IMG/VR virus record: IMGVR_UViG_3300025405_000009
Coordinates: 1-64,000 of that record
Direction: 5' to 3' (one strand)
DNA: 64,000 nucleotides
DNA from: a virus
Shown here: positions 15,129 to 29,409 of the stretch, piece by piece
How positions within the stretch are numbered: the first letter of the stretch is position 1
Layout of the letters: each line of letters begins with the position of its first letter
Notes under the pieces: generated by a model
The model's input: the letters and a program-made list of their open reading frames with translations, nothing else
Database searches by the model: none
What the model was told of the DNA's origin: nothing
Translations under genes and position numbers: made by a program

Positions 15129-15605
15129 ATGGCTTCACAATTATTTTGGCATAACGTTTATAACGGATTAGATCTTCTTAGTAAAGATTTTAAAAAGACA
15201 GATTTTATACCTGAAGCTATTGTTGGTGTTGGTCGTGGTGGGTTAATTCCAGCTACATTACTTGCCTATAAGTTTAATGTTAAGGCTTTGTTTAATTTTA
15301 CTATACAAAGCTATAGTGATGAAAACCTAAAGACAAATGATTTTGTTACCTTTCAAGAACCCGGTGTTGATATTTGTAATTACAAGAACAAAAACGTTCT
15401 TGTTGTAGATGATTTATCTGACTCTGGAGATACATTACTTCATATTGTAGATAAGTTAAAGCATCAATTTTATCTTGAGAATGTTAAAGTAGCAACTCTT
15501 GCTATTAAGAAGGATACAAAGTTTCGACCTGATTATTTTGTTCAGGAATATCCGTCAGATGTTTGGTTAACGTTTCCCTGGGAGACGGCGGATTTTATTT
15601 CGTAA
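15129..15605 (+). CDS. type I phosphoribosyltransferase (xanthine/guanine PRTase-like)
   Basis: VGRGGLIPA, VLVVDDLSDSGDTL PRPP loop, C-terminal WLTFPWE. Confidence 0.9.
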   Translation: MASQLFWHNVYNGLDLLSKDFKKTDFIPEAIVGVGRGGLIPATLLAYKFNVKALFNFTIQSYSDENLKTNDFVTFQEPGVDICNYKNKNVLVVDDLSDSGDTLLHIVDKLKHQFYLENVKVATLAIKKDTKFRPDYFVQEYPSDVWLTFPWETADFIS

Positions 15606-20622: not shown

Positions 20623-20808
20623 ATGACATTCTTAATTGAAAATACTCTTCTTTATAAAAAATATCATGAAGAAAGAGAACATATATTACGAAATAAATGG
20701 TATATGTCTGAACGTAAGGGTATTGATGTTGGTTATGAAAAAGCTCTTCTTGACTGGATTATTAATAAAAAGAAGTACTTAAACGAGACCCTTAACAGTA
20801 TTCTTTAA
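20623..20808 (+). CDS. DUF4032-like small protein
   Basis: EREHILRNKWYMSERKGIDVGYEKALLDW; TATAAATA at 20608, start moved to 20623. Confidence 0.65.
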   Translation: MTFLIENTLLYKKYHEEREHILRNKWYMSERKGIDVGYEKALLDWIINKKKYLNETLNSIL

Positions 20809-23800
20809 TTTAGAAACATCACCAGAAACTGCTCCTACAGCACCCTTTAACCCTCCTGCTCCACCTTGAAGTGCTGATAGGTAAGATGTAAATTTCTGTT
20901 TAATGTTTGTTATATCTTGATCTGGTGATTGTCCGTGATATTCGGATTTTGTAGGTACATTACCGCTTTGCATTGCTGCAGCAAACTCAGCTCTATGGAA
21001 GGCATGAGCTGGAGCATCACCTTCATTATGAGTATGACTGTGAGGGTTATTAATAACACTATCTGGATTTGCGCCTGCTCCAATAACCATCATTGGAGAT
21101 TGTAATGATGCCTTATCACCTGGGTTACCTTCTGCCGTACTAAGAATTTTCTTAACCTTATCATTTGGTAGACCGCGAAGAGACATAACGTTCGTGGGTT
21201 GTGTATTTGTTGTCATCATTTGTGGTTGTGATGAACCACCATTACCTGCAGGTCCTGTACCCTGTACAGCAAATCCAGCAGAATAAATTGGTACTTTAAA
21301 TGTTGTATCACCAGCTAAATTTGCTGCTACAGCTGCTGCAATATAGGCAGCTGTCGTATAACCTATTTGTGCTGTAGGTGTACCAGCTCCTGATTGATAT
21401 AATGGATCTTGTGGAACCCAACCAATCCATTGACCAGGATCAGTATATCCCATATATAGAGCCTTAGAATTATCTGGTCTCAATTGACCATCCTGTAACT
21501 TACCGGCTGTATCCATCGGTATAGCAATACCAGCTGTTGCATCAGCTCTTACTCTTCCTGTAACCTTAGTCTGATCTGTAACACGTTTTAATTGTGGTGT
21601 AGAAGTAGAGAGTGCTGTGAGATTACCTTCAACAAATATACCACCTTTAACAATAAGATTACCTGTAATACCAACACTACTATCCATTAAGATCTGTTCG
21701 TTATTACGCTGACGAATACTAACAATATCACCAATAAGACTTAAACGGTGACCACCATCAATATTAACCTCATTTGCACTACCAATGTTAACTTGCTCGG
21801 CAGCAATATTTGCCATTGCACCAGAGATATTAACTACACCGTATGATTTAAGATTTAATCCACCAGCGCCAACTAAAACATTATATCTGTTACATACGTT
21901 TAATGTATATGTACCACCAGGAAGATCATCAACTTGAACTTGTTCGATTAAAGGTGTTGGTCTTTGAACAGTAACGGGCATGTAAGGAGTAATACCAACA
22001 AAGGCTGGTGAGAGCTTACCAATAGGATCAACTCTAATAGCACCCCAATCATTCATTACCATACCAATTGTTTCAATCTTATGTTTAGTAACTTCAATAA
22101 TTTCCGAACCACCAGGTCCCATTTGTGATTCAATTTGTGCAAGCTTTGGTAAAACTGTTTGATATAGTTTTACTAAATCTTTTTTCTTTGGTTCAACTGT
22201 CCACGCACCATGAAAGGAACTTGGACTATATCCCGGCTTTAATGTAATAGAAGGATCTTTAACTAAACCTGAATTAAATGGTGATGCAGGGTTACAAACC
22301 GGACATGGTACACCACCAATGGTACCACTTAACTGTACTAGTGTTTTACCTTGTTGATCCTTTACAGACTTGTTATTTTCAATAAGGCTATGTACAGGAA
22401 ATATACCAGTTACTAATTTTGATAACTGATTGCCGAAAGCAATTGAGGGTTCAACACCTTTATCTGTGATTGTGTGACCATATGAACTATCAGCAAATGA
22501 GCTCGAATAACCGGGTGCTTTAGATACAATACTATATGCCTCTGGACCGTATGTATTGTTAAGAGCCAAAACACTTTGTTGATTAGCTGAACATAATGGA
22601 CATAGATAAGGTGTACCGTTTTTAGATTGCCCTTTTCCATTTAATTTAATAATACTACCATCAATGCCCTTAATACCTTTAACTCCATCTGTTCTTTGAA
22701 TATCGAATAACTGCTTTATGTTTGGAATGCCAACAGATTCCATTATTGACTTCCATTGATTGTGTAAACTAAAATGTAAATTACCAACCTTACGATAATG
22801 ATCTCCAACAATAGTATTATCTAAATCACGTTGAGTGAATTCATTTCTAAAACCGCGTACTGTTGAGAATGTATCACCTAATACCAATTTTTGATCATTA
22901 CCAGTAGCAAGTTCAATATTTGCTTGATTATTAAATTCTTTAAATGAACCTGAGTAATGAGTAAGTTTTACAGCTTCTCTTGTGTCTGTATTTGTAAAAG
23001 ATAATGTACCTCCTTTTTGATTTATAACATATTTGTTTCTGTATGTACGTACATTAATATCATAATTATCGTCTTTCTTTATATTTTCGTAAGTACCCGG
23101 ATAATCAATACCAGGTGTACCAGAGCTTGCTCCGGTAATTGTTGTCCAATCGTTGGCACCAAAAGAAAGACCAAATACAACTGGTCTTAAGGGATCACCT
23201 TCATTAAAAAATACCCAAACGTGGGCACCAACATTTAGAAGAGGAAAGGCACCTTTAGCGCTATTACTATATGTTTCAGGAACATAATCATAACTATATT
23301 TGTTAACATTATTAACGTTTGTTAATTGTGGGTTATTAAATGCGTCACTTAATTTGTTATACGCAATATCATAGATATTACCAGGTTTTTCACCAATATT
23401 ATCCATATTCTGGGTATGCGGATAAGAGGATAAAGGACCTTGAGCTGACGTATAATCTAAATTATTTGAATCACTTATTGAACCTTGATTTATGGTAGCG
23501 TTATACCGTCCAGAAGATCCACCACCGGCTAAAGGGGCTGACATTTCAGCCCATGGAAGGATTGCTTTTAAATCATCTAAAATAGCTGTCAAATCACCAC
23601 TACCAGCTGGTTTTGTTGAAGTTCCTGTAACAGTGTTTAATGTTGTAGAGAGAAGACTGGTGTCAAGAGAGGAGATACCACCAATGAAATTAAAGTTTTT
23701 ATCTTTATTAATCTCATTCCATCCTTTATAAACAGTTGGAGAGATGTGAGGTACGAAGACTTTAACTCTTCCTCTGTATTGTGGGTCATTGTTCTGTACA

Positions 23801-23841
23801 ACGATCCCAACATAATTACCGTAATAACGTGGAAATTCCAT
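20779..23841 (-). CDS. gp5: baseplate central spike (T4 gp5-like), no lysozyme domain recognised
   Basis: YYGNYVGIVVQNNDPQYRGRVKVFVP OB-fold start, GAHVWVFFNEGDPLRPVVFG, beta-helix repeats, terminal PHSHTH. Confidence 0.85.
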   Translation of the reverse strand: MEFPRYYGNYVGIVVQNNDPQYRGRVKVFVPHISPTVYKGWNEINKDKNFNFIGGISSLDTSLLSTTLNTVTGTSTKPAGSGDLTAILDDLKAILPWAEMSAPLAGGGSSGRYNATINQGSISDSNNLDYTSAQGPLSSYPHTQNMDNIGEKPGNIYDIAYNKLSDAFNNPQLTNVNNVNKYSYDYVPETYSNSAKGAFPLLNVGAHVWVFFNEGDPLRPVVFGLSFGANDWTTITGASSGTPGIDYPGTYENIKKDDNYDINVRTYRNKYVINQKGGTLSFTNTDTREAVKLTHYSGSFKEFNNQANIELATGNDQKLVLGDTFSTVRGFRNEFTQRDLDNTIVGDHYRKVGNLHFSLHNQWKSIMESVGIPNIKQLFDIQRTDGVKGIKGIDGSIIKLNGKGQSKNGTPYLCPLCSANQQSVLALNNTYGPEAYSIVSKAPGYSSSFADSSYGHTITDKGVEPSIAFGNQLSKLVTGIFPVHSLIENNKSVKDQQGKTLVQLSGTIGGVPCPVCNPASPFNSGLVKDPSITLKPGYSPSSFHGAWTVEPKKKDLVKLYQTVLPKLAQIESQMGPGGSEIIEVTKHKIETIGMVMNDWGAIRVDPIGKLSPAFVGITPYMPVTVQRPTPLIEQVQVDDLPGGTYTLNVCNRYNVLVGAGGLNLKSYGVVNISGAMANIAAEQVNIGSANEVNIDGGHRLSLIGDIVSIRQRNNEQILMDSSVGITGNLIVKGGIFVEGNLTALSTSTPQLKRVTDQTKVTGRVRADATAGIAIPMDTAGKLQDGQLRPDNSKALYMGYTDPGQWIGWVPQDPLYQSGAGTPTAQIGYTTAAYIAAAVAANLAGDTTFKVPIYSAGFAVQGTGPAGNGGSSQPQMMTTNTQPTNVMSLRGLPNDKVKKILSTAEGNPGDKASLQSPMMVIGAGANPDSVINNPHSHTHNEGDAPAHAFHRAEFAAAMQSGNVPTKSEYHGQSPDQDITNIKQKFTSYLSALQGGAGGLKGAVGAVSGDVSKLKNTVKGLV

Positions 23842-23877
23842 AGTTGATATATGATTATTTACATGTATTATATAGTT

Positions 23878-24696
23878 ATGCTAGTAAAGGTATCACACGA
23901 ATCTCCTATTTCTATTCTTCAAACGTCAACGTTGTATAACGATTTTGATTATGCCTTAGTTCATTTATTTGAATCACATCCAAAATATTATCAATATTTT
24001 AAGACAGCTCGTGAGATTTATAATCGTGAAGTTCTTCTTGATAACTCTATTTTTGAGCTCGGTCATGCGTTTGATAGCGATAAGTTCTTAGCTGCTGCTA
24101 TTGATCTCAAACCAAATATGTTTATTGTTCCTGATGTACTTGAAGATGGTATGAGGACTAGACAGAGTTTCACCGATTGGGAGTTACTAGGTAGAACACA
24201 ACATATAAAGGATGTTTGTACTACAAAGGCTATTGGTGCAGTTCAGGGTAAGACATGGCAGGAGCTTATTGATTGTTATAAGTTTATGTCGGATCACGCT
24301 GATATGATTGCTATTAGTTTTGATTTTTCTTACTATGAGGTTACAGGTGAGGGTAGATCAAAGCTTGATAAGTGGTGCTCTGGTCGTCAGAGGTTTATTA
24401 GTCAGCTTATTGAGAAGGGTATCTGGAACTTGGATAAGCCTCATCATCTTCTAGGATGTTCACTTGCAAAGGAATTTCGATATTATATTAATCACAATAT
24501 TTTTAATATTGTAAGTTGTGATACCAGTAATCCAATTGTTGCAGCTCTTCATAATATGAAATATGATGCTGATTACGGTCTTTCTACTAAACCATCTACT
24601 AAGCTTGCTGATCTTATTGATCATCAAGTTACAAAAGATGAAATGGAAATCATAGATTATAATACTAAAATGTTTAAGAAAATTTTATGCAGATAG
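23878..24696 (+). CDS. dpdA: DpdA3-like 7-deazaguanine DNA transglycosylase (TGT-like TIM barrel)
   Basis: SHESP...DYALVHL...VLLDNSIFELG...IVPDV...HHLLG...SCDTSNP; context with QueF and formyltransferase; start moved to 23878 (leaderless promoter). Confidence 0.65.
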   Translation: MLVKVSHESPISILQTSTLYNDFDYALVHLFESHPKYYQYFKTAREIYNREVLLDNSIFELGHAFDSDKFLAAAIDLKPNMFIVPDVLEDGMRTRQSFTDWELLGRTQHIKDVCTTKAIGAVQGKTWQELIDCYKFMSDHADMIAISFDFSYYEVTGEGRSKLDKWCSGRQRFISQLIEKGIWNLDKPHHLLGCSLAKEFRYYINHNIFNIVSCDTSNPIVAALHNMKYDADYGLSTKPSTKLADLIDHQVTKDEMEIIDYNTKMFKKILCR

Positions 24697-25307
24697 GCAA
24701 ACGACCTTGGATAGCTTTTTTTAGTCAGAGTGGTCAGGCGATTTATAATGTAAAAACATTTTTTAACCGTCAACCGGATGCTATTATTACTAATCGTCAA
24801 AATAATGAGGGGTTGTTTGATCCGTTAAAAGAAGATAAAGACAATGGTAAACTTAATTGGATAATATTACCAAAGAATCCCACTGTTAATGATTACAAAA
24901 AGGCTTTAAAGAAATTTAAAAATCCTGTTATTACTCTTAATGGTTATCTTAGAATTATGCCTAAAGAGATTTGTGAGAAGTATGAGATTTATAATCTTCA
25001 TCCCGGTCTCATAACTGAATATCCAGAACTCAAAGGAAAAGATCCACAAAAGAGAGCTATTGAAGCTAAACACCGTCACATAGGATGTGTTATTCATAGG
25101 GTTACACCTACTGTTGATGATGGAGAGATTCTTATGGCAAATGCTATTGATACAGCTATACTGGAAAACGATGAAGAGCGTATGTATGCCAATCTTGCCT
25201 CCATGGCGTATGTAATGTGGTATGACTTCTTTAATAATTTTAAACAATATGAGCATAGACGAAATAGTAAAAACAATCGAAACACAGTATCCGGAGACCT
25301 GTACTGA
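24687..25307 (+). CDS. dpdN: PurN-like formyltransferase (DpdN, dPreQ1 formyltransferase candidate)
   Basis: LNGYLRIMP...YNLHPGL...GCVIHRVTPTVDDGEIL GAR-transformylase motifs. Confidence 0.75.
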   Translation: MQIGKRPWIAFFSQSGQAIYNVKTFFNRQPDAIITNRQNNEGLFDPLKEDKDNGKLNWIILPKNPTVNDYKKALKKFKNPVITLNGYLRIMPKEICEKYEIYNLHPGLITEYPELKGKDPQKRAIEAKHRHIGCVIHRVTPTVDDGEILMANAIDTAILENDEERMYANLASMAYVMWYDFFNNFKQYEHRRNSKNNRNTVSGDLY

Positions 25308-25596
25308 ATTTAAAAAAATTCAGGCAGAGCATTACCTTACTTTTTGTAAGAAGCAATTTGATTATGGCCCAGGTAATATTTCTTTAGGGTCATCTTTAAA
25401 TACAGCTGAGGAGAGAAAGGCATCAATTTCCGCAATTGTAGTTAGACTTAATGATAAACTTCAGCGTCTTATCAATCTTGTTCTTAGAAAGAACAGTCTT
25501 GAGTCAGCTAATGAGTCAGTTTTTGATGCGTTTTTAGATGCATCTGTTTATAGTATTATTGCTGAGATAGTAAATCGTGGCAAATGGGCAAAGTAG
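25249..25596 (+). CDS. DUF1599 / nucleotide-modification-associated all-alpha protein
   Basis: KKQFDYG...RLNDKLQRL...ESVFDAFLDASVYSII. Confidence 0.75.
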   Translation: MSIDEIVKTIETQYPETCTEFKKIQAEHYLTFCKKQFDYGPGNISLGSSLNTAEERKASISAIVVRLNDKLQRLINLVLRKNSLESANESVFDAFLDASVYSIIAEIVNRGKWAK

Positions 25597-25611
25597 TATT
25601 ATAATTAAACT

Positions 25612-26163
25612 ATGTTAATAAGTTTTAGCGGTGTTCAATCTAGTGGTAAGAGTACTTTACTAAAGGCTTGTCAAGAGCATTATGGTGATCGATTTGAATT
25701 TGTAGAGGAAGTAACTAGATTAGTAAAGAGAGAATTTAATGTGCCTATTAACGAAGAAGGTACAGGTTTAACTCAATGCTTAATCATTAATAAACATATT
25801 GAGAATGTACTGAGATTAAGGGAGACAAAGGGGGCTATACTAGATCGCTGTATTCTTGATGGAGTTTGTTATACAGGGTATCTGCACTTAGAGGGTACTG
25901 TTCCTTCATGGGTATTTGATTATAGTAAGAAGGTATTTGAAAAACTTATTACAATGTATGATGTAATCTTTTATACTGATCCGTATGATATTGAATTAGT
26001 TGATGATGGTGAGAGAAGTATTAATAAGGAATTTAGATACAATATGATTACTACATTTGAACATGTAATAAAAAGATATGATCATCTGTTAAAAGATAAA
26101 GTTGTAAAACTAAAAGGAACAGTTGAAGAACGAATGGAAGCTATTAAAATAAAATTACAATAA
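25612..26163 (+). CDS. P-loop nucleotide monophosphate kinase (thymidylate kinase/AAA_28-like)
   Basis: SGVQSSGKST Walker A, ILDRCILDG. Confidence 0.8.
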   Translation: MLISFSGVQSSGKSTLLKACQEHYGDRFEFVEEVTRLVKREFNVPINEEGTGLTQCLIINKHIENVLRLRETKGAILDRCILDGVCYTGYLHLEGTVPSWVFDYSKKVFEKLITMYDVIFYTDPYDIELVDDGERSINKEFRYNMITTFEHVIKRYDHLLKDKVVKLKGTVEERMEAIKIKLQ

Positions 26164-26168
26164 CAATT

Positions 26169-27158
26169 ATGTCAAGCACAACCTCAAACGCATTTGGTGG
26201 TAATAATCGACCACCAACACCACCAGCACCACCACAACAGAGTATGAATGACTTTGCATCAAAGTCACTTGGTTCATCTGCATCATACGCTATCTATACT
26301 GAACAGTTTGATGCCTCACTTCTTAACCCAATGCCTAGAGTTCTTGCTCGTCAGGATCATGGTATTACAGGAGCTGAATTTGTAGGAGGAGATGTATGGC
26401 ATTGTCATGAAGCAACATTCCTTCTTAATAATGGATACCCAATCGCTGGTACATTAAAGTATACCTACCCTGCTAACTCAGAGTTTATGGTAGAGTCAAA
26501 GTCAGCTAAACTGTATCTCAATTCATTCGATATGTGTAAAATGGGCAATACACCTGCTGAGGCAATTGCTAAGTATGAACAACAGGTTGCCGATGACTTG
26601 GCAAGAGTTCTTCAGACTCAAGTAGATGTTATTTTCTTCCCTTCAGGATCTGATAAGTACGGTAAGCTTCCTCTTGATGGAGAGTATAGGGATCTTTATT
26701 GGGAGCTTCTTGATATTGCTAAAGATATTGAGATTACTGATTATTCATCTAATGAAAATCATCTTAAGTTTGCTAAGATTCATCCAGAAGATAATGAAAA
26801 AGTATCATCCAAGTACTTTACTAATGCATTAAGATCACGTTGTCGTCATACTAAACAAAAGGATACAGGAGCTGCTTATATTCATATTATTTCTAAAGAC
26901 GGTATGATGATTGATCCAGTATCTCTTTATAAGCAAATTGTGTCATTAAGAGAAGTTAATGAGTTTCATGAGTTCTGTGCAGAAAAGCTCTTTAAGAGTA
27001 TTATGGCATGTCCTGAAGTAGAAGATTGTTGTGTAACTCTTCTTTACTCTCGTCGTGGGTCTCTTGATATTAACCCTGTACGTGCCAGTAAGCCTGAACT
27101 TCTTCCAACTAATCTTATAGATGCAAATATCTATACTATTAAGGCAATGGGTCAATAA
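26169..27158 (+). CDS. queF: NADPH-dependent 7-cyano-7-deazaguanine reductase (YqcD-type QueF)
   Basis: VESKSAKLYLNSF QueF motif, LRSRCRHTKQKD (catalytic C/D), EFHE, YSRRGSLDINP. Confidence 0.85.
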   Translation: MSSTTSNAFGGNNRPPTPPAPPQQSMNDFASKSLGSSASYAIYTEQFDASLLNPMPRVLARQDHGITGAEFVGGDVWHCHEATFLLNNGYPIAGTLKYTYPANSEFMVESKSAKLYLNSFDMCKMGNTPAEAIAKYEQQVADDLARVLQTQVDVIFFPSGSDKYGKLPLDGEYRDLYWELLDIAKDIEITDYSSNENHLKFAKIHPEDNEKVSSKYFTNALRSRCRHTKQKDTGAAYIHIISKDGMMIDPVSLYKQIVSLREVNEFHEFCAEKLFKSIMACPEVEDCCVTLLYSRRGSLDINPVRASKPELLPTNLIDANIYTIKAMGQ

Positions 27159-27181
27159 TTATTGTTAGTTGTTGTTACAAT

Positions 27182-27212
27182 AAAAAAGGCGTACTAAAAG
27201 TACGCCTTTTTT
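27182..27212. terminator. bidirectional intrinsic terminator
   Basis: aaaaaaGGCGTACT-aaa-AGTACGCCtttttt between convergent genes. Confidence 0.9.
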
Positions 27213-27230
27213 ATTATATTTTTATCTAAA

Positions 27231-27752
27231 TTAACCTAAGTAAGCTGCAAGTCTTGATTGACTAAATGTAGTGCGAACCTGATGATTTACATCTGGACTA
27301 CCTGTAAGAATAAAGAAATTATCTAAAGCTGAGGTCTTTGTTGTATCTATAGCAATTGTTGAAGCATTAGATGAAAGACTAATTACGGTGTTAGCTAAGC
27401 TTGTTGCAATACCTGTTGTAATTGGCCAATAAACAGCAAGAGTACCACTTACACCACTCTTATAAGTTGAACCAGCAACAAGTTGTCCTGCCCATACTTG
27501 AGGTGTTGTTAACACGGAAGGTGAACTAAGTGTAATATTAATACTTGTTGCGCCTGCAGTTGCACTTAAGCCAACTCCTGTACTATCAGGATCTGTAAGA
27601 ACAGTTAATTTAGCTACTAAATCACTAGTAGCTGCTCCAAGAGTTGTATTAGTAGCACTAAGAGTGATTACTGCATCAACACCAGCATTCGCAACAAATC
27701 CTGCGACTGATGAAATGATTGGTGTTACTGTTAAAAATGATTCGTATGCCAT
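27231..27752 (-). CDS. Ser/Thr/Ala-rich late structural protein (capsid decoration candidate)
   Basis: Own TAAATA box, immediately downstream of major capsid gene. Confidence 0.5.
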   Translation of the reverse strand: MAYESFLTVTPIISSVAGFVANAGVDAVITLSATNTTLGAATSDLVAKLTVLTDPDSTGVGLSATAGATSINITLSSPSVLTTPQVWAGQLVAGSTYKSGVSGTLAVYWPITTGIATSLANTVISLSSNASTIAIDTTKTSALDNFFILTGSPDVNHQVRTTFSQSRLAAYLG

Positions 27753-27858: not shown

Positions 27859-29409
27859 TTAGAAGTAAACTGACTGAGTGGCAGGTGTGAAGGCCTTACC
27901 GAGACCCTGAAGGATGATGACGTGGTAATAAAGATTCGCACCGAAGATGTTGTCAACTACACCATAACGTGTAAGAAGACCGACTCTTGGTGAGAAATCG
28001 TTAGGACCGATAGTACGCTGAACCATAACTGGGATGTATGGGCAGTAAATAATACCTGTATCATAGAATTCAGGACCCTTATAACCTAGGAGTGCGTAAT
28101 CAAGACGTGCTGAACGTGTTGTCGGAGTCTGACCGAAACTACCAGGGAAGCCGTTAGCGCCGGCAAGGTTGCCGCCGAAACCAGCTTCGTACTGAGCTTC
28201 AGTGCGAGTATCACGATAAACGTTGAAACGACCTGCGAGACTACCTACCTTAGCAACACCAACTGGCTGTGTATTTACATTACCTTGTACGGGTACCCAC
28301 TGGAACTCAGGGAGCATCTCAAGGATTGCGCAAACACGAGGTGTACCAACAATGAAGTTAGCTGCACCACGACGGTTACGAACTGCAATACGATTAGCCT
28401 CGATGATGAGGCGCTGATAGAAGTCACGGTTACGCTCTACAAGCCAACGACCATCTGCGGAAGCTGGTGACCAGACTGAGAATCCAGCGCCGAAACCGGC
28501 GTTAAGAGCTGTCTGAACCATGCGGATGATCATTTCACGGTCGATTTCGGCCTGAAGCTCATAACTCATTGCGTTAGTAAGCTCAGTGTCGATATCGATA
28601 CCATTCATGTTCTTAAGATCCTGCTCCAACTCGACAGACCAACGAGCTGCGAGACGGCGTGTGCCGGCTTCAACTGCTGTCTTTTCGAATGAAACTACGA
28701 TCTGAGGAATATTGCTTGTTAACTCAAACTGACTGAGAAGCTGAGCAACACCTTGATCCTGCGCAACCATTGGGAATAAAGCACTTGCGTAGCTGTTATC
28801 ACCAGAGAGTGCTGCCGAAGAAGCACCTGTGAATCGGGAATCGAGATATTGGTAACCAAGTTCTGTGTTGTTTGAGGTCAACGCGGCATTACTGGTGTAC
28901 TGGTTCGTTAAAGAACCATCAATACCACTAGTACCGTTGTTGTAACCTAAAGCCTGACCGTCGTACTTATATCTAAGTGCGAAAGCAAGACCAACTGGAC
29001 CACTCATTGGCTGAACACCAACGATTTCGTTAGTGATCAACTCAGGGAATGTACGTCTGATCATCGGGATGAGAATCTTTGGAAGACGGGCATCACCTGG
29101 AGCATAAGCGGTATCATTCTGAGATGGGAACTGGTTGCCGTAAGCACCGTTTTGGATACCTGAAGCTACACCTGTTCCACCTGAGTTTGAGAAAGCACCT
29201 ATACCACCTGATGTTGTGCCTGCGCCAGACGCTTCAAAACACCATTTTTCTTGGTTCTCAAGAAGAATAGCTGTATTGAGACGTGTGTGGTCGTCTTCGA
29301 TTGGCTGTACGTTGTCTGAAGTATAGTTAAGAACTGGGTTCCACTTTTCAAGCAAAGCATTAGCGCGATTTACATCGATGTAAGACTGTGAGGGACGAAT
29401 ATTTGACAT
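27859..29409 (-). CDS. gp23: major capsid protein
   Basis: GVQPMSGPVGLAFALR, TRRLAARWSVELEQDLKNMNGIDIDTEL, YCPYIP. Confidence 0.98.
   Translation of the reverse strand: MSNIRPSQSYIDVNRANALLEKWNPVLNYTSDNVQPIEDDHTRLNTAILLENQEKWCFEASGAGTTSGGIGAFSNSGGTGVASGIQNGAYGNQFPSQNDTAYAPGDARLPKILIPMIRRTFPELITNEIVGVQPMSGPVGLAFALRYKYDGQALGYNNGTSGIDGSLTNQYTSNAALTSNNTELGYQYLDSRFTGASSAALSGDNSYASALFPMVAQDQGVAQLLSQFELTSNIPQIVVSFEKTAVEAGTRRLAARWSVELEQDLKNMNGIDIDTELTNAMSYELQAEIDREMIIRMVQTALNAGFGAGFSVWSPASADGRWLVERNRDFYQRLIIEANRIAVRNRRGAANFIVGTPRVCAILEMLPEFQWVPVQGNVNTQPVGVAKVGSLAGRFNVYRDTRTEAQYEAGFGGNLAGANGFPGSFGQTPTTRSARLDYALLGYKGPEFYDTGIIYCPYIPVMVQRTIGPNDFSPRVGLLTRYGVVDNIFGANLYYHVIILQGLGKAFTPATQSVYF

Follow-up and report, generated by a model that had tools for sequence, protein, structure and literature searches.

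A five-gene DpdA3 cassette with a constant kinase partner in an uncultured T4-like phage, and the timing of 7-deazaguanine insertion

Introduction

Are phage genomes that are fully substituted with 7-deazaguanine built from modified nucleotides before replication, or are they altered afterwards? A modified-dGTP proposal of 2019 stands against the opposite conclusion drawn in 2023 with the discovery of the transglycosylase DpdA3. No paper since 2023 on the mechanism of DpdA3 was found in the literature searched. The question is raised again by a five-gene cassette on a single 198,847-bp IMG/VR virus contig (IMGVR_UViG_3300025405_000009), the first 64 kb of which form the window analysed here. 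The contig has a G+C content of 34% and a CheckV completeness of 91%, and its source is an uncultured T4-like phage. The cassette encodes, in order, a DpdA3-type transglycosylase (gene 1), a DpdN-type formyltransferase (gene 2), a small protein related to DUF1599 (gene 3), a kinase (gene 4) and the preQ0 reductase QueF (gene 5). A kinase was found to accompany DpdA3 constantly, which suggests that the base is swapped on free nucleotides before the DNA is copied.

Identity of the cassette

Judged by homology, the operon is a further member of the published fdPreQ1/DpdA3 system, and the cassette is a diverged copy of the DpdA3-DpdN-kinase-QueF block of the Flavobacterium phage immuto. In immuto DNA all G is replaced by fdPreQ1 (7-(formylamino)methyl-7-deazaguanine), as measured (PMC10516641). 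The four genes stand in the same order in both phages, with protein identities of 44%, 44%, 31% and 38%, and both phages encode a full preQ0 pathway and a small phosphoribosyltransferase (PRTase). They differ in that a DUF1599-like gene lies between DpdN and the kinase here and not in immuto, whereas immuto has a 50-aa open reading frame (ORF) between DpdA3 and DpdN. Immuto also carries a PRA-PH/MazG-like hydrolase two genes upstream, for which no match was obtained in this genome. In this phage the cassette is flanked by baseplate and capsid genes and lies apart from folE and queCDE. The present phage is T4-like, and its DNA chemistry is predicted where that of immuto was measured.

The five ORFs overlap or stand at most 15 nt apart (Table 1). 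The same order recurs at 63 non-redundant related IMG/VR loci, this being the set with enough flank for the survey, so the cassette is not a chance arrangement. Median identity across the 63 loci was 70.5% for gene 3 and 70.1% for DpdA3. DpdN and the kinase reached 48-49%, QueF 35%.

On the following comparisons gene 1 is a member of the DpdA3 subfamily. No Pfam match was obtained for it. The protein is 44% identical to immuto DpdA3 (YP_010114477; tblastn 2e-60, reciprocal blastp 6e-72) and 45-46% identical to gp056 of the Campylobacter phage CP220 (tblastn 9e-52, reciprocal blastp 4e-62), and these are two founding members of the subfamily (PMC10516641). An alignment of 122 diverse DpdA3 homologues showed no variation at D55, D86, R170, H190/L192/G193 and D215; they also share the conserved F59 and the HLLG190-193 stretch. 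No Cys is conserved among them, which indicates that the Zn subdomain of TGT is missing.

The best PDB match of the family profile was bacterial DpdA (7ui4), weakly (E 0.13) and over HLLG...SxD, a region that in 7ui4 holds the Asp counted as chain residue 276. In bacterial DpdA the nucleophile is Asp256, the acid/base Asp95 and the gate Phe99 (PMC10164549). Residue 276 is equated with Asp256 only by assuming a 20-residue tag offset; with this assumption for D256, DpdA3 residues D55/F59, D86, L192 and D215 correspond to D95/F99, D130, L236 and D256. The TGT/DpdA catalytic set is present, with a candidate acid/base D55, a gating F59 and a candidate nucleophile D215 after the HLLG strand. The family member of the Cellulophaga phage phiST was matched by HHpred to PF01702 at 98.8% (PMC10516641). 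The Salmonella enzyme has 416-436 aa with insertions, acts on DNA and modifies <0.1% of G (PMC10164549). Both it and DpdA3 have a TGT-like catalytic Asp pair and an NTP-using partner, and DpdA3 aligns to its nucleophile motif; the differences are that DpdA3 has about 270 aa and no conserved Zn-site Cys, and that the bacterial partner DpdB is a ParB-fold ATPase and not kinase-like. The median isoelectric point of the DpdA3 family (5.5) says nothing on a DNA or a small-molecule substrate, since that of the DNA-acting DpdA of phage 9g is 5.6. Clustering the family at 90% leaves 2,699 close homologues, clustering at 50% identity gives 1,374 clusters, and IMG/VR holds more than 531 loci; two cluster representatives (P0245 and P0302) are fusions of DpdA3 with the DpdN formyltransferase.

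Gene 2 matched PF00551 at 2.8e-16 (60 bits) and immuto DpdN with 44% identity (2e-46). Its NLHP and DDG catalytic motifs align to glycinamide ribonucleotide transformylases. The features that define DpdN are all found: a PurN domain, the Asn-His...Asp set, and co-encoding with DpdA and with FolE through QueF. Gene 5 has QueF_N and QueF domains (81 and 41 bits) and aligns end to end with Vibrio cholerae QueF (3bp1, 9e-32). Its catalytic Cys (RSRC), the ESKSAKLYLNS motif and FHE are all conserved, and its Pro-rich N-terminal extension contains RPPTPPAPPQQ. The PHROG label 'GTP cyclohydrolase' for this protein was rejected as imprecise. FolE, a PTPS/QueD-like gene, a QueE-like radical-SAM gene and QueC were all found elsewhere on the 199-kb contig. 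Virion DNA is predicted to bear fdPreQ1 for G because the pathway is homologous to that of immuto.

An earlier reading of the window, made from the letters and ORF translations alone (the sequence-only reading), had proposed much of this, and its account of the operon holds. The five genes are as tightly linked as it described. The TGT-like DpdA3 candidate is homologous to founding members of that subfamily, the PurN-like formyltransferase resembles DpdN, and QueF has intact catalytic residues behind a Pro-rich N-terminus. The link that it drew to the published fdPreQ1 system is borne out by the immuto-like DpdA3, DpdN, kinase and QueF, together with the complete preQ0 pathway, whose folE and queCDE genes it had left to be sought outside the cassette.

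Several further genes were recorded around the que genes (Table 1). A 417-aa ORF without a Pfam match lies between FolE and the QueD-like gene. The QueD-like protein has 244 aa, of which the PTPS domain covers the first 144, leaving about 100 C-terminal residues unexplained. A stand-alone class-II glutamine amidotransferase (GATase_6/7, 227 aa) is encoded about 1 kb from QueC, with an antisense ORF between; it could feed ammonia to QueC or form an archaeosine-type base. Two family-2 glycosyltransferases and a CmcI-type methyltransferase are also near the que genes; they may act on DNA or on glycans of the host or the virion. A small type I PRTase of the window, a possible accessory protein in purine or deazapurine salvage, has 33% identity to the PRTase inside the que cluster of immuto, and phiST encodes one too.

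Kinase and its association with DpdA3

Gene 4 matched PF13521 (AAA_28) at 3.9e-13 (50 bits, cut-off 27). It carries the P-loop GVQSSGKST and a DR motif, and G7, G12, K13, T15, D78 and R79 are invariant. The predicted structure (pLDDT 89.7) was compared with known folds using Foldseek. It matched the thymidylate kinase 5xai at 6.6e-8, and the deoxyadenosine kinase 2jat and NadR 6gyf with a TM-score of 0.73; the best matches had TM-scores of 0.70-0.73. The matched folds are those of thymidylate kinases, deoxyadenosine/deoxycytidine kinases and the nicotinamide-riboside kinase NadR, that is, of small-substrate phosphotransferases. The name 'thymidylate kinase' was tried and rejected: PF02223 gave 20.2 bits (cut-off 27), and phmmer to PDB thymidylate kinases gave E 0.019. 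This database name is unjustified because the protein scores below the Pfam gathering score.

The kinase and QueF are each present in 63/63 related loci. Outside this clade a small kinase-like gene stands beside a DpdA3 or DpdA3-like gene in six more lineages. In immuto an AAA_28 kinase adjoins DpdA3. In the CP220 group AAA_28 is downstream of DpdA3 and an HD::AAA_33 fusion is upstream. The order in Campylobacter phage CC_R7 is QueC, DpdA3-like, AAA_28, PolB, and in Bacillus phage BSTP12 it is P-loop protein, DpdA3-like, PolA. Chryseobacterium phage MA9V-3 has an AAA_18/33 kinase in that position, and phiST has the AAA_18 kinase CGPG_00066 (Walker A GEICSGKD). A kinase is also next to DpdA3 in all seven phiST- and MA9V-3-type IMG/VR loci and in two further metagenomic contexts. 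These neighbours belong to different subfamilies, AAA_28 or AAA_18/33. A tblastn search of 50,697 phage records with the window kinase matched no phages other than immuto and those of Campylobacter, which is nearly the DpdA3-bearing set. In one cluster representative (P0367, L108:193-1614), on a contig of 2.9 kb, the kinase and the transglycosylase are fused (AAA_28::DpdA3), and QueC comes next.

Other searches were negative or neutral. No longer, fused relatives of the kinase were found in a homologue search seeded with the kinase, and IMG/VR scans seeded with BSTP12, P0314 and P0343 gave no loci. A complex prediction of DpdA3 with the kinase scored 0.00, which counts neither way. In the control phage 9g (DpdA1, partial modification) no Walker A motif was found in the hypothetical genes of the que cluster.

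A second AAA_28 kinase-like gene (247 aa, 23% identity to the cassette kinase) lies directly downstream of the QueE-like gene. The phage has two such kinases, as does CP220 (gp057 and the HD::kinase fusion). CP220 (Firehammervirus, dADG system), in which G is completely replaced (PMC10516641), resembles the present phage in DpdA3 (45-46% identity) and in the adjacent AAA_28 kinase (35% identity). It differs in having no QueF, DpdN or DUF1599-like gene, in the HD::AAA_33 fusion upstream of DpdA3 and in its product, a 7-amido base. In phiST (dDG cluster) the small kinase is likewise immediately upstream of the DpdA3-family enzyme, with FolE, QueD and QueE nearby; here the differences are the AAA_18 subfamily of the kinase, the presence of MazG and of the QueD paralogue DpdL, and the absence of QueC, QueF and DpdN. 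CGPG_00066 was stated to be without homologues in other deazaguanine phages (PMC10516641). This holds at the level of sequence and not at that of functional class.

The kinase clearly belongs to the DpdA3 system, and the partnership is not mentioned in the DpdA3 paper (PMC10516641). The P-loop kinase named in the sequence-only reading stands, as an AAA_28 protein with a predicted nucleoside/nucleotide-kinase fold that adjoins DpdA3 in seven lineages.

Other nucleotide-pool enzymes in DpdA3 clusters

Nucleoside triphosphate (NTP) hydrolases of four unrelated families recur in DpdA3 clusters. MazG is found in phiST, in IMG/VR loci L120/L121 and on the P0314 contig. PRA-PH, a MazG-like hydrolase, is two genes upstream in immuto, and HD is fused to a kinase in CP220. 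A protein of the dCTP-deaminase/dUTPase fold is found in MA9V-3 and in IMG/VR loci L116-L119 and L122. In addition, the cassettes of about 23 relatives have, inserted after DpdN and ahead of gene 3, a gene of the GMP-reductase family (PF00478, 1.9e-55). It encodes a GMP-reductase/IMPDH-family protein of 319 aa without a CBS insert (L023:8390-9349; also, for example, L047:7399-8355).

Similar sets of enzymes are known from other fully substituted genomes. The T4 pathway to hydroxymethyl-deoxycytidine uses a dCTPase, dCMP hydroxymethylase and the deoxynucleoside monophosphate (dNMP) kinase gp1, and the Z genome of S-2L uses MazZ, PurZ and DatZ. By analogy, DpdA3 as the base-changing enzyme is recurrently accompanied by an NTP hydrolase and by its own kinase, and in all these systems the canonical base is fully replaced. 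The central enzymes are not homologous, and no hydrolase member was matched in the present genome.

Gene 3

Gene 3 was difficult to place. PF07659 (DUF1599) gave no match at E<=1, either on the protein or in a six-frame search of the genome. The protein matched phrog_1485 at 5e-12 and, by tblastn, crAss-like 'DUF1599' proteins weakly (7e-5). Among its neighbours in language-model features, PF07659 occurs in 30-59% of members. A four-helix model was predicted (pLDDT 85). This was superposed on the ESM Atlas cluster 'Nucleotide modification associated domain 1' with a TM-score of 0.88 and a root-mean-square deviation of 1.8 Å over 115 residues, in a comparison of two predicted models; PF07659 is present in 68% of the members of that cluster.

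Relation to nucleotide hydrolases was not found in any of the comparisons made. Foldseek of the model against the PDB gave nothing at E<=0.001 (best suggestive row 2p06, E 4.4), and VIA-align gave only generic helical hairpins (Z<8). With hhalign the probability against immuto PRA-PH and phiST MazG was 0.1%, in a test of low power with single-sequence targets. The EExxE motif is not visible.

Across the 63 related loci, gene 3 is present in 53/57 that bear DpdN and in 0/6 that do not. Neither immuto nor CP220 has it. In sequence, gene 3 and DpdA3 are the best conserved proteins of the cassette. Gene 3 thus tracks the formyltransferase and is probably not a core dGTP-depleting step; we take it to be an optional helper linked to formylation. 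Three claims of the sequence-only reading are affected. The assignment to DUF1599 stands in part, on the predicted fold, the weak tblastn matches and the language-model neighbours, although the Pfam model itself fails. The description as a MazG-like NTP-pyrophosphatase was not confirmed, as neither fold searches nor hhalign gave a supporting match. Its role as the dGTP-depleting enzyme that a pre-replicative route needs is not supported, the gene being optional and co-occurring with DpdN.

The closest homologue of gene 3 in a cultured phage was found in Microcystis phage Mel-JY01 (L028:5791-6345, 43% identity). It makes up the C-terminal portion of a protein of 184 aa, whose gene has those of the clamp loader and S-adenosylmethionine synthetase on either side. 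A GuaB/GuaC-family gene lies 3.5 kb away, and no DpdA3 was detected in that phage.

Timing of the base exchange

Base exchange by DpdA3 on a free nucleoside or nucleotide before replication is the favoured reading, held with a confidence that is evenly poised. It is favoured because a nucleotide-type kinase is constantly linked to DpdA3, sometimes by fusion, and an enzyme that destroys guanine nucleotides is usually found with them. By homology, FolE, QueD, QueE and QueC would make the preQ0 base, QueF would reduce preQ0 to preQ1, and DpdN would add the formyl group. DpdA3 would exchange guanine for the deazaguanine base on the free deoxynucleoside or deoxynucleotide and not on finished DNA. 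The dedicated kinase, plus the second copy beside QueE, would phosphorylate the exchange product, a cellular NDP kinase would complete the triphosphate, and the phage polymerase would incorporate it. Guanine nucleotides would meanwhile be drained by the MazG, PRA-PH, HD, dUTPase-fold protein or GMP reductase of the lineage in question. It is perhaps an even call whether DpdA3, a dedicated kinase and a lineage-specific guanine-nucleotide-destroying enzyme together build a 7-deazaguanine dNTP pool from which G is fully replaced during replication.

A dedicated kinase is a mark of pre-replicative pathways, and the kinase here is co-inherited with DpdA3. An enzyme that removes canonical dNTP, a further mark, is found in the phiST, immuto, CP220 and MA9V-3-like clusters, and none was matched in this genome (HD, MazG and PRA-PH searched). 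The idea revives an earlier proposal of 2019, relayed in PMC6884629, that Campylobacter phages make modified dGTP, and ADG nucleoside was reported in CP220-infected cells. That no T4-type dNMP kinase was found in this genome, and no Walker A motif in the hypothetical genes of the 9g que cluster, are further points in its favour. The pre-replicative route had been put forward in the sequence-only reading; the comparative data on kinases and hydrolases strengthen it, and it is still a route that we infer and do not present as demonstrated.

Several points weigh against exchange on free nucleotides. We know of no TGT-family enzyme that acts on a mononucleotide, and such an activity would be unprecedented. 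The catalytic constellation of DpdA3 is the one with which bacterial DpdA acts on DNA. Recycling of the released guanine into GTP for FolE explains the kinase and the PRTase just as well, and the substrate of the kinase (nucleoside or nucleoside monophosphate, canonical or modified) cannot be read from its sequence. The kinase::DpdA3 fusion is a single case on one short contig, and phage 9g is the sole non-DpdA3 control examined. Profile searches of this genome gave no HD, MazG, PRA-PH or GMP-reductase match; with no hydrolase matched and the fold of gene 3 not demonstrable, dGTP exclusion is unexplained here. As to the product, the stand-alone glutamine amidotransferase near QueC leaves a G+-type base possible, and fdPreQ1 is indicated instead because QueF and DpdN are inside the DpdA3 operon. 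Finally, the published model is post-replicative for all 7-deazaguanine insertions (PMC10516641).

That published model is the strongest competitor, and we regard it as a serious one, if somewhat less probable. DpdA3 would be a transglycosylase acting on DNA with high efficiency, replacing every G by preQ1 once the DNA is replicated, and DpdN would formylate in DNA or on the free base; the kinase and the PRTase would salvage guanine through GMP and GDP to GTP for FolE, or the kinase would phosphorylate dNMPs in general, standing in for T4 gp1, which is missing. It fits the conserved TGT/DpdA catalytic residues and the action of bacterial DpdA on DNA, and DpdA1 of phage 9g inserts preQ0 into plasmid DNA in E. 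coli (PMC6884629). The salvage part agrees with the PRTases found here, in immuto and in phiST. No T4-type dNMP kinase was found in this T4-like genome, so a general kinase would be needed anyway, and the lack of a match to any dGTP-removing enzyme in the HD, MazG and PRA-PH searches also speaks for the model. However, a salvage or housekeeping kinase need not adjoin or fuse to the transglycosylase in seven lineages and in at least two kinase subfamilies, and the NTP hydrolases and GMP reductase that recur in the clusters do the reverse of salvage, since they destroy guanine nucleotides. To our knowledge, wherever the route to a fully substituted phage base has been worked out (hydroxymethylcytosine in T4, hydroxymethyluracil in SPO1, Z in S-2L), that base is made in the nucleotide pool. 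DpdA3 was also unsuccessful in the E. coli model used by the authors of the DpdA3 paper (PMC10516641).

Two other explanations were weighed. The P-loop protein may be an ATP-using partner of DpdA3 on DNA, similar to DpdB, for example opening or scanning the DNA to bring every G within reach. Guanine exchange in DNA by bacterial DpdA depends on the ATPase DpdB (PMC10164549), and the strict adjacency of the kinase to DpdA3, with one fusion, would suit such a role; yet the fold of DpdB is ParB-like, whereas the kinase model matches small-substrate phosphotransferases, and the kinase retains a thymidylate-kinase-like DR motif and has, in its 183 aa, no extra DNA-binding domain. We consider this improbable. 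Least probable of all is a pre-replicative route through ribonucleotides, in which the PRTase joins the deazaguanine base to phosphoribosyl pyrophosphate, kinases and ribonucleotide reductase lead on to the dNTP, and all that is left to DpdA3 is the proofreading of residual G in DNA or the modification of tRNA. PRTases are found here, inside the que cluster of immuto, and in phiST beside a dNMP-kinase-like gene and ribonucleotide reductase. In toyocamycin biosynthesis the PRTase ToyH and the GMP-reductase homologue ToyE act on preQ0 nucleotides, which speaks for such a route, as do the GMP-reductase genes in relatives' cassettes. But the PRTase of this genome is 8 kb from the cassette, the constant neighbour and fusion partner of the kinase is DpdA3 and not the PRTase, and with a ribonucleotide pool the modified base would enter RNA as well. 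Exchange on free nucleotides by DpdA3 itself is kept as the favoured reading.

Locus layout and neighbouring genes

Window positions 23844-27215 form one compact unit on the + strand, with a promoter-like site, the five genes and a terminator hairpin. It stands between late genes for the baseplate hub and the capsid on the - strand. The 3' end of the promoter candidate, which rests on its consensus match, is 6 nt upstream of the DpdA3 ATG at 23878. This position leaves no space for a leader, and neither a riboswitch nor any other Rfam family was found in the window or the que regions. The DpdA3 start was set at 23878, since the ATG at 23851 falls within the promoter-like site and MLxKVSH is also where the relatives begin. 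The terminator-like hairpin may work in both directions, since its sequence is palindromic and flanked on both sides by A and T runs.

A 173-aa ORF without a Pfam or PHROG match lies between QueF and the capsid gene. It has 35-76% identity among relatives and is duplicated in tandem in some of them (L009, L013).

Table 1. Positions of the cassette, its signals and other genes (window positions unless given as G000, with the locus coordinates in brackets).
Feature	Position	Strand	Basis or remark
Sigma-70-like promoter candidate, TTGATA-16-TATTAT	23844-23871	+	Consensus scan, 10/12 positions
DpdA3-type TGT/DpdA-family transglycosylase (gene 1), 272 aa	23878-24696 (ORF 23851/23878-24696)	+	Homology to founding DpdA3 proteins
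DpdN-type PurN-like formyltransferase (gene 2), 206 aa	24687-25307	+	PF00551, immuto homology
Four-helix protein related to DUF1599/Nmad1 (gene 3), 115 aa	25249-25596 (ORF 25222/25249-25596)	+	Start overlaps DpdN tail
Predicted DpdA3-associated AAA_28 nucleoside/nucleotide kinase (gene 4), 183 aa	25612-26163	+	PF13521
QueF, bimodular NADPH-dependent preQ0 reductase (gene 5), 329 aa	26169-27158	+	QueF_N and QueF domains
Terminator-like hairpin	27179-27215		17 pairs then T run; 3' of QueF stop
173-aa ORF	27231-27752	-	
T4-type major capsid protein	27859-29409	-	Late gene
Baseplate-hub protein	20779-23841	-	Late gene
Small type I PRTase	15129-15605	+	PF00156, 3.3e-17
Glutamine amidotransferase	G000 72009-72692 (L114:2510-3193)	-	GATase_6/7
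417-aa ORF	G000 92781-94034 (L003:4782-6035)	+	
QueD-like protein	G000 94368-95102 (L003:6369-7103)		PTPS domain
Second AAA_28 kinase-like gene	G000 97166-97909 (L003:9167-9910)	+	
Glycosyltransferases and CmcI-type methyltransferase	G000 71338-72012 (L114:1839-2513)	-	
Glycosyltransferases and CmcI-type methyltransferase, continued	G000 99083-99994, 99975-100562 (L003:11084-12563)	+	

Significance

The operon belongs to a known system, and its value is the testable mechanistic question that it poses. The constant partnership of DpdA3 with a kinase, the interchangeable NTP hydrolases and the GMP reductase make the mechanism concretely and cheaply testable. If the nucleotide-pool route is true, it would be a new type of reaction for the TGT superfamily, it could account for the unsuccessful E. 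coli tests of DpdA3, and it would yield enzymes with which 7-deaza-dGTP analogues can be made. The answer would apply to many environmental phages, because the DpdA3 family is large (2,699 homologues, 1,374 clusters at 50%).

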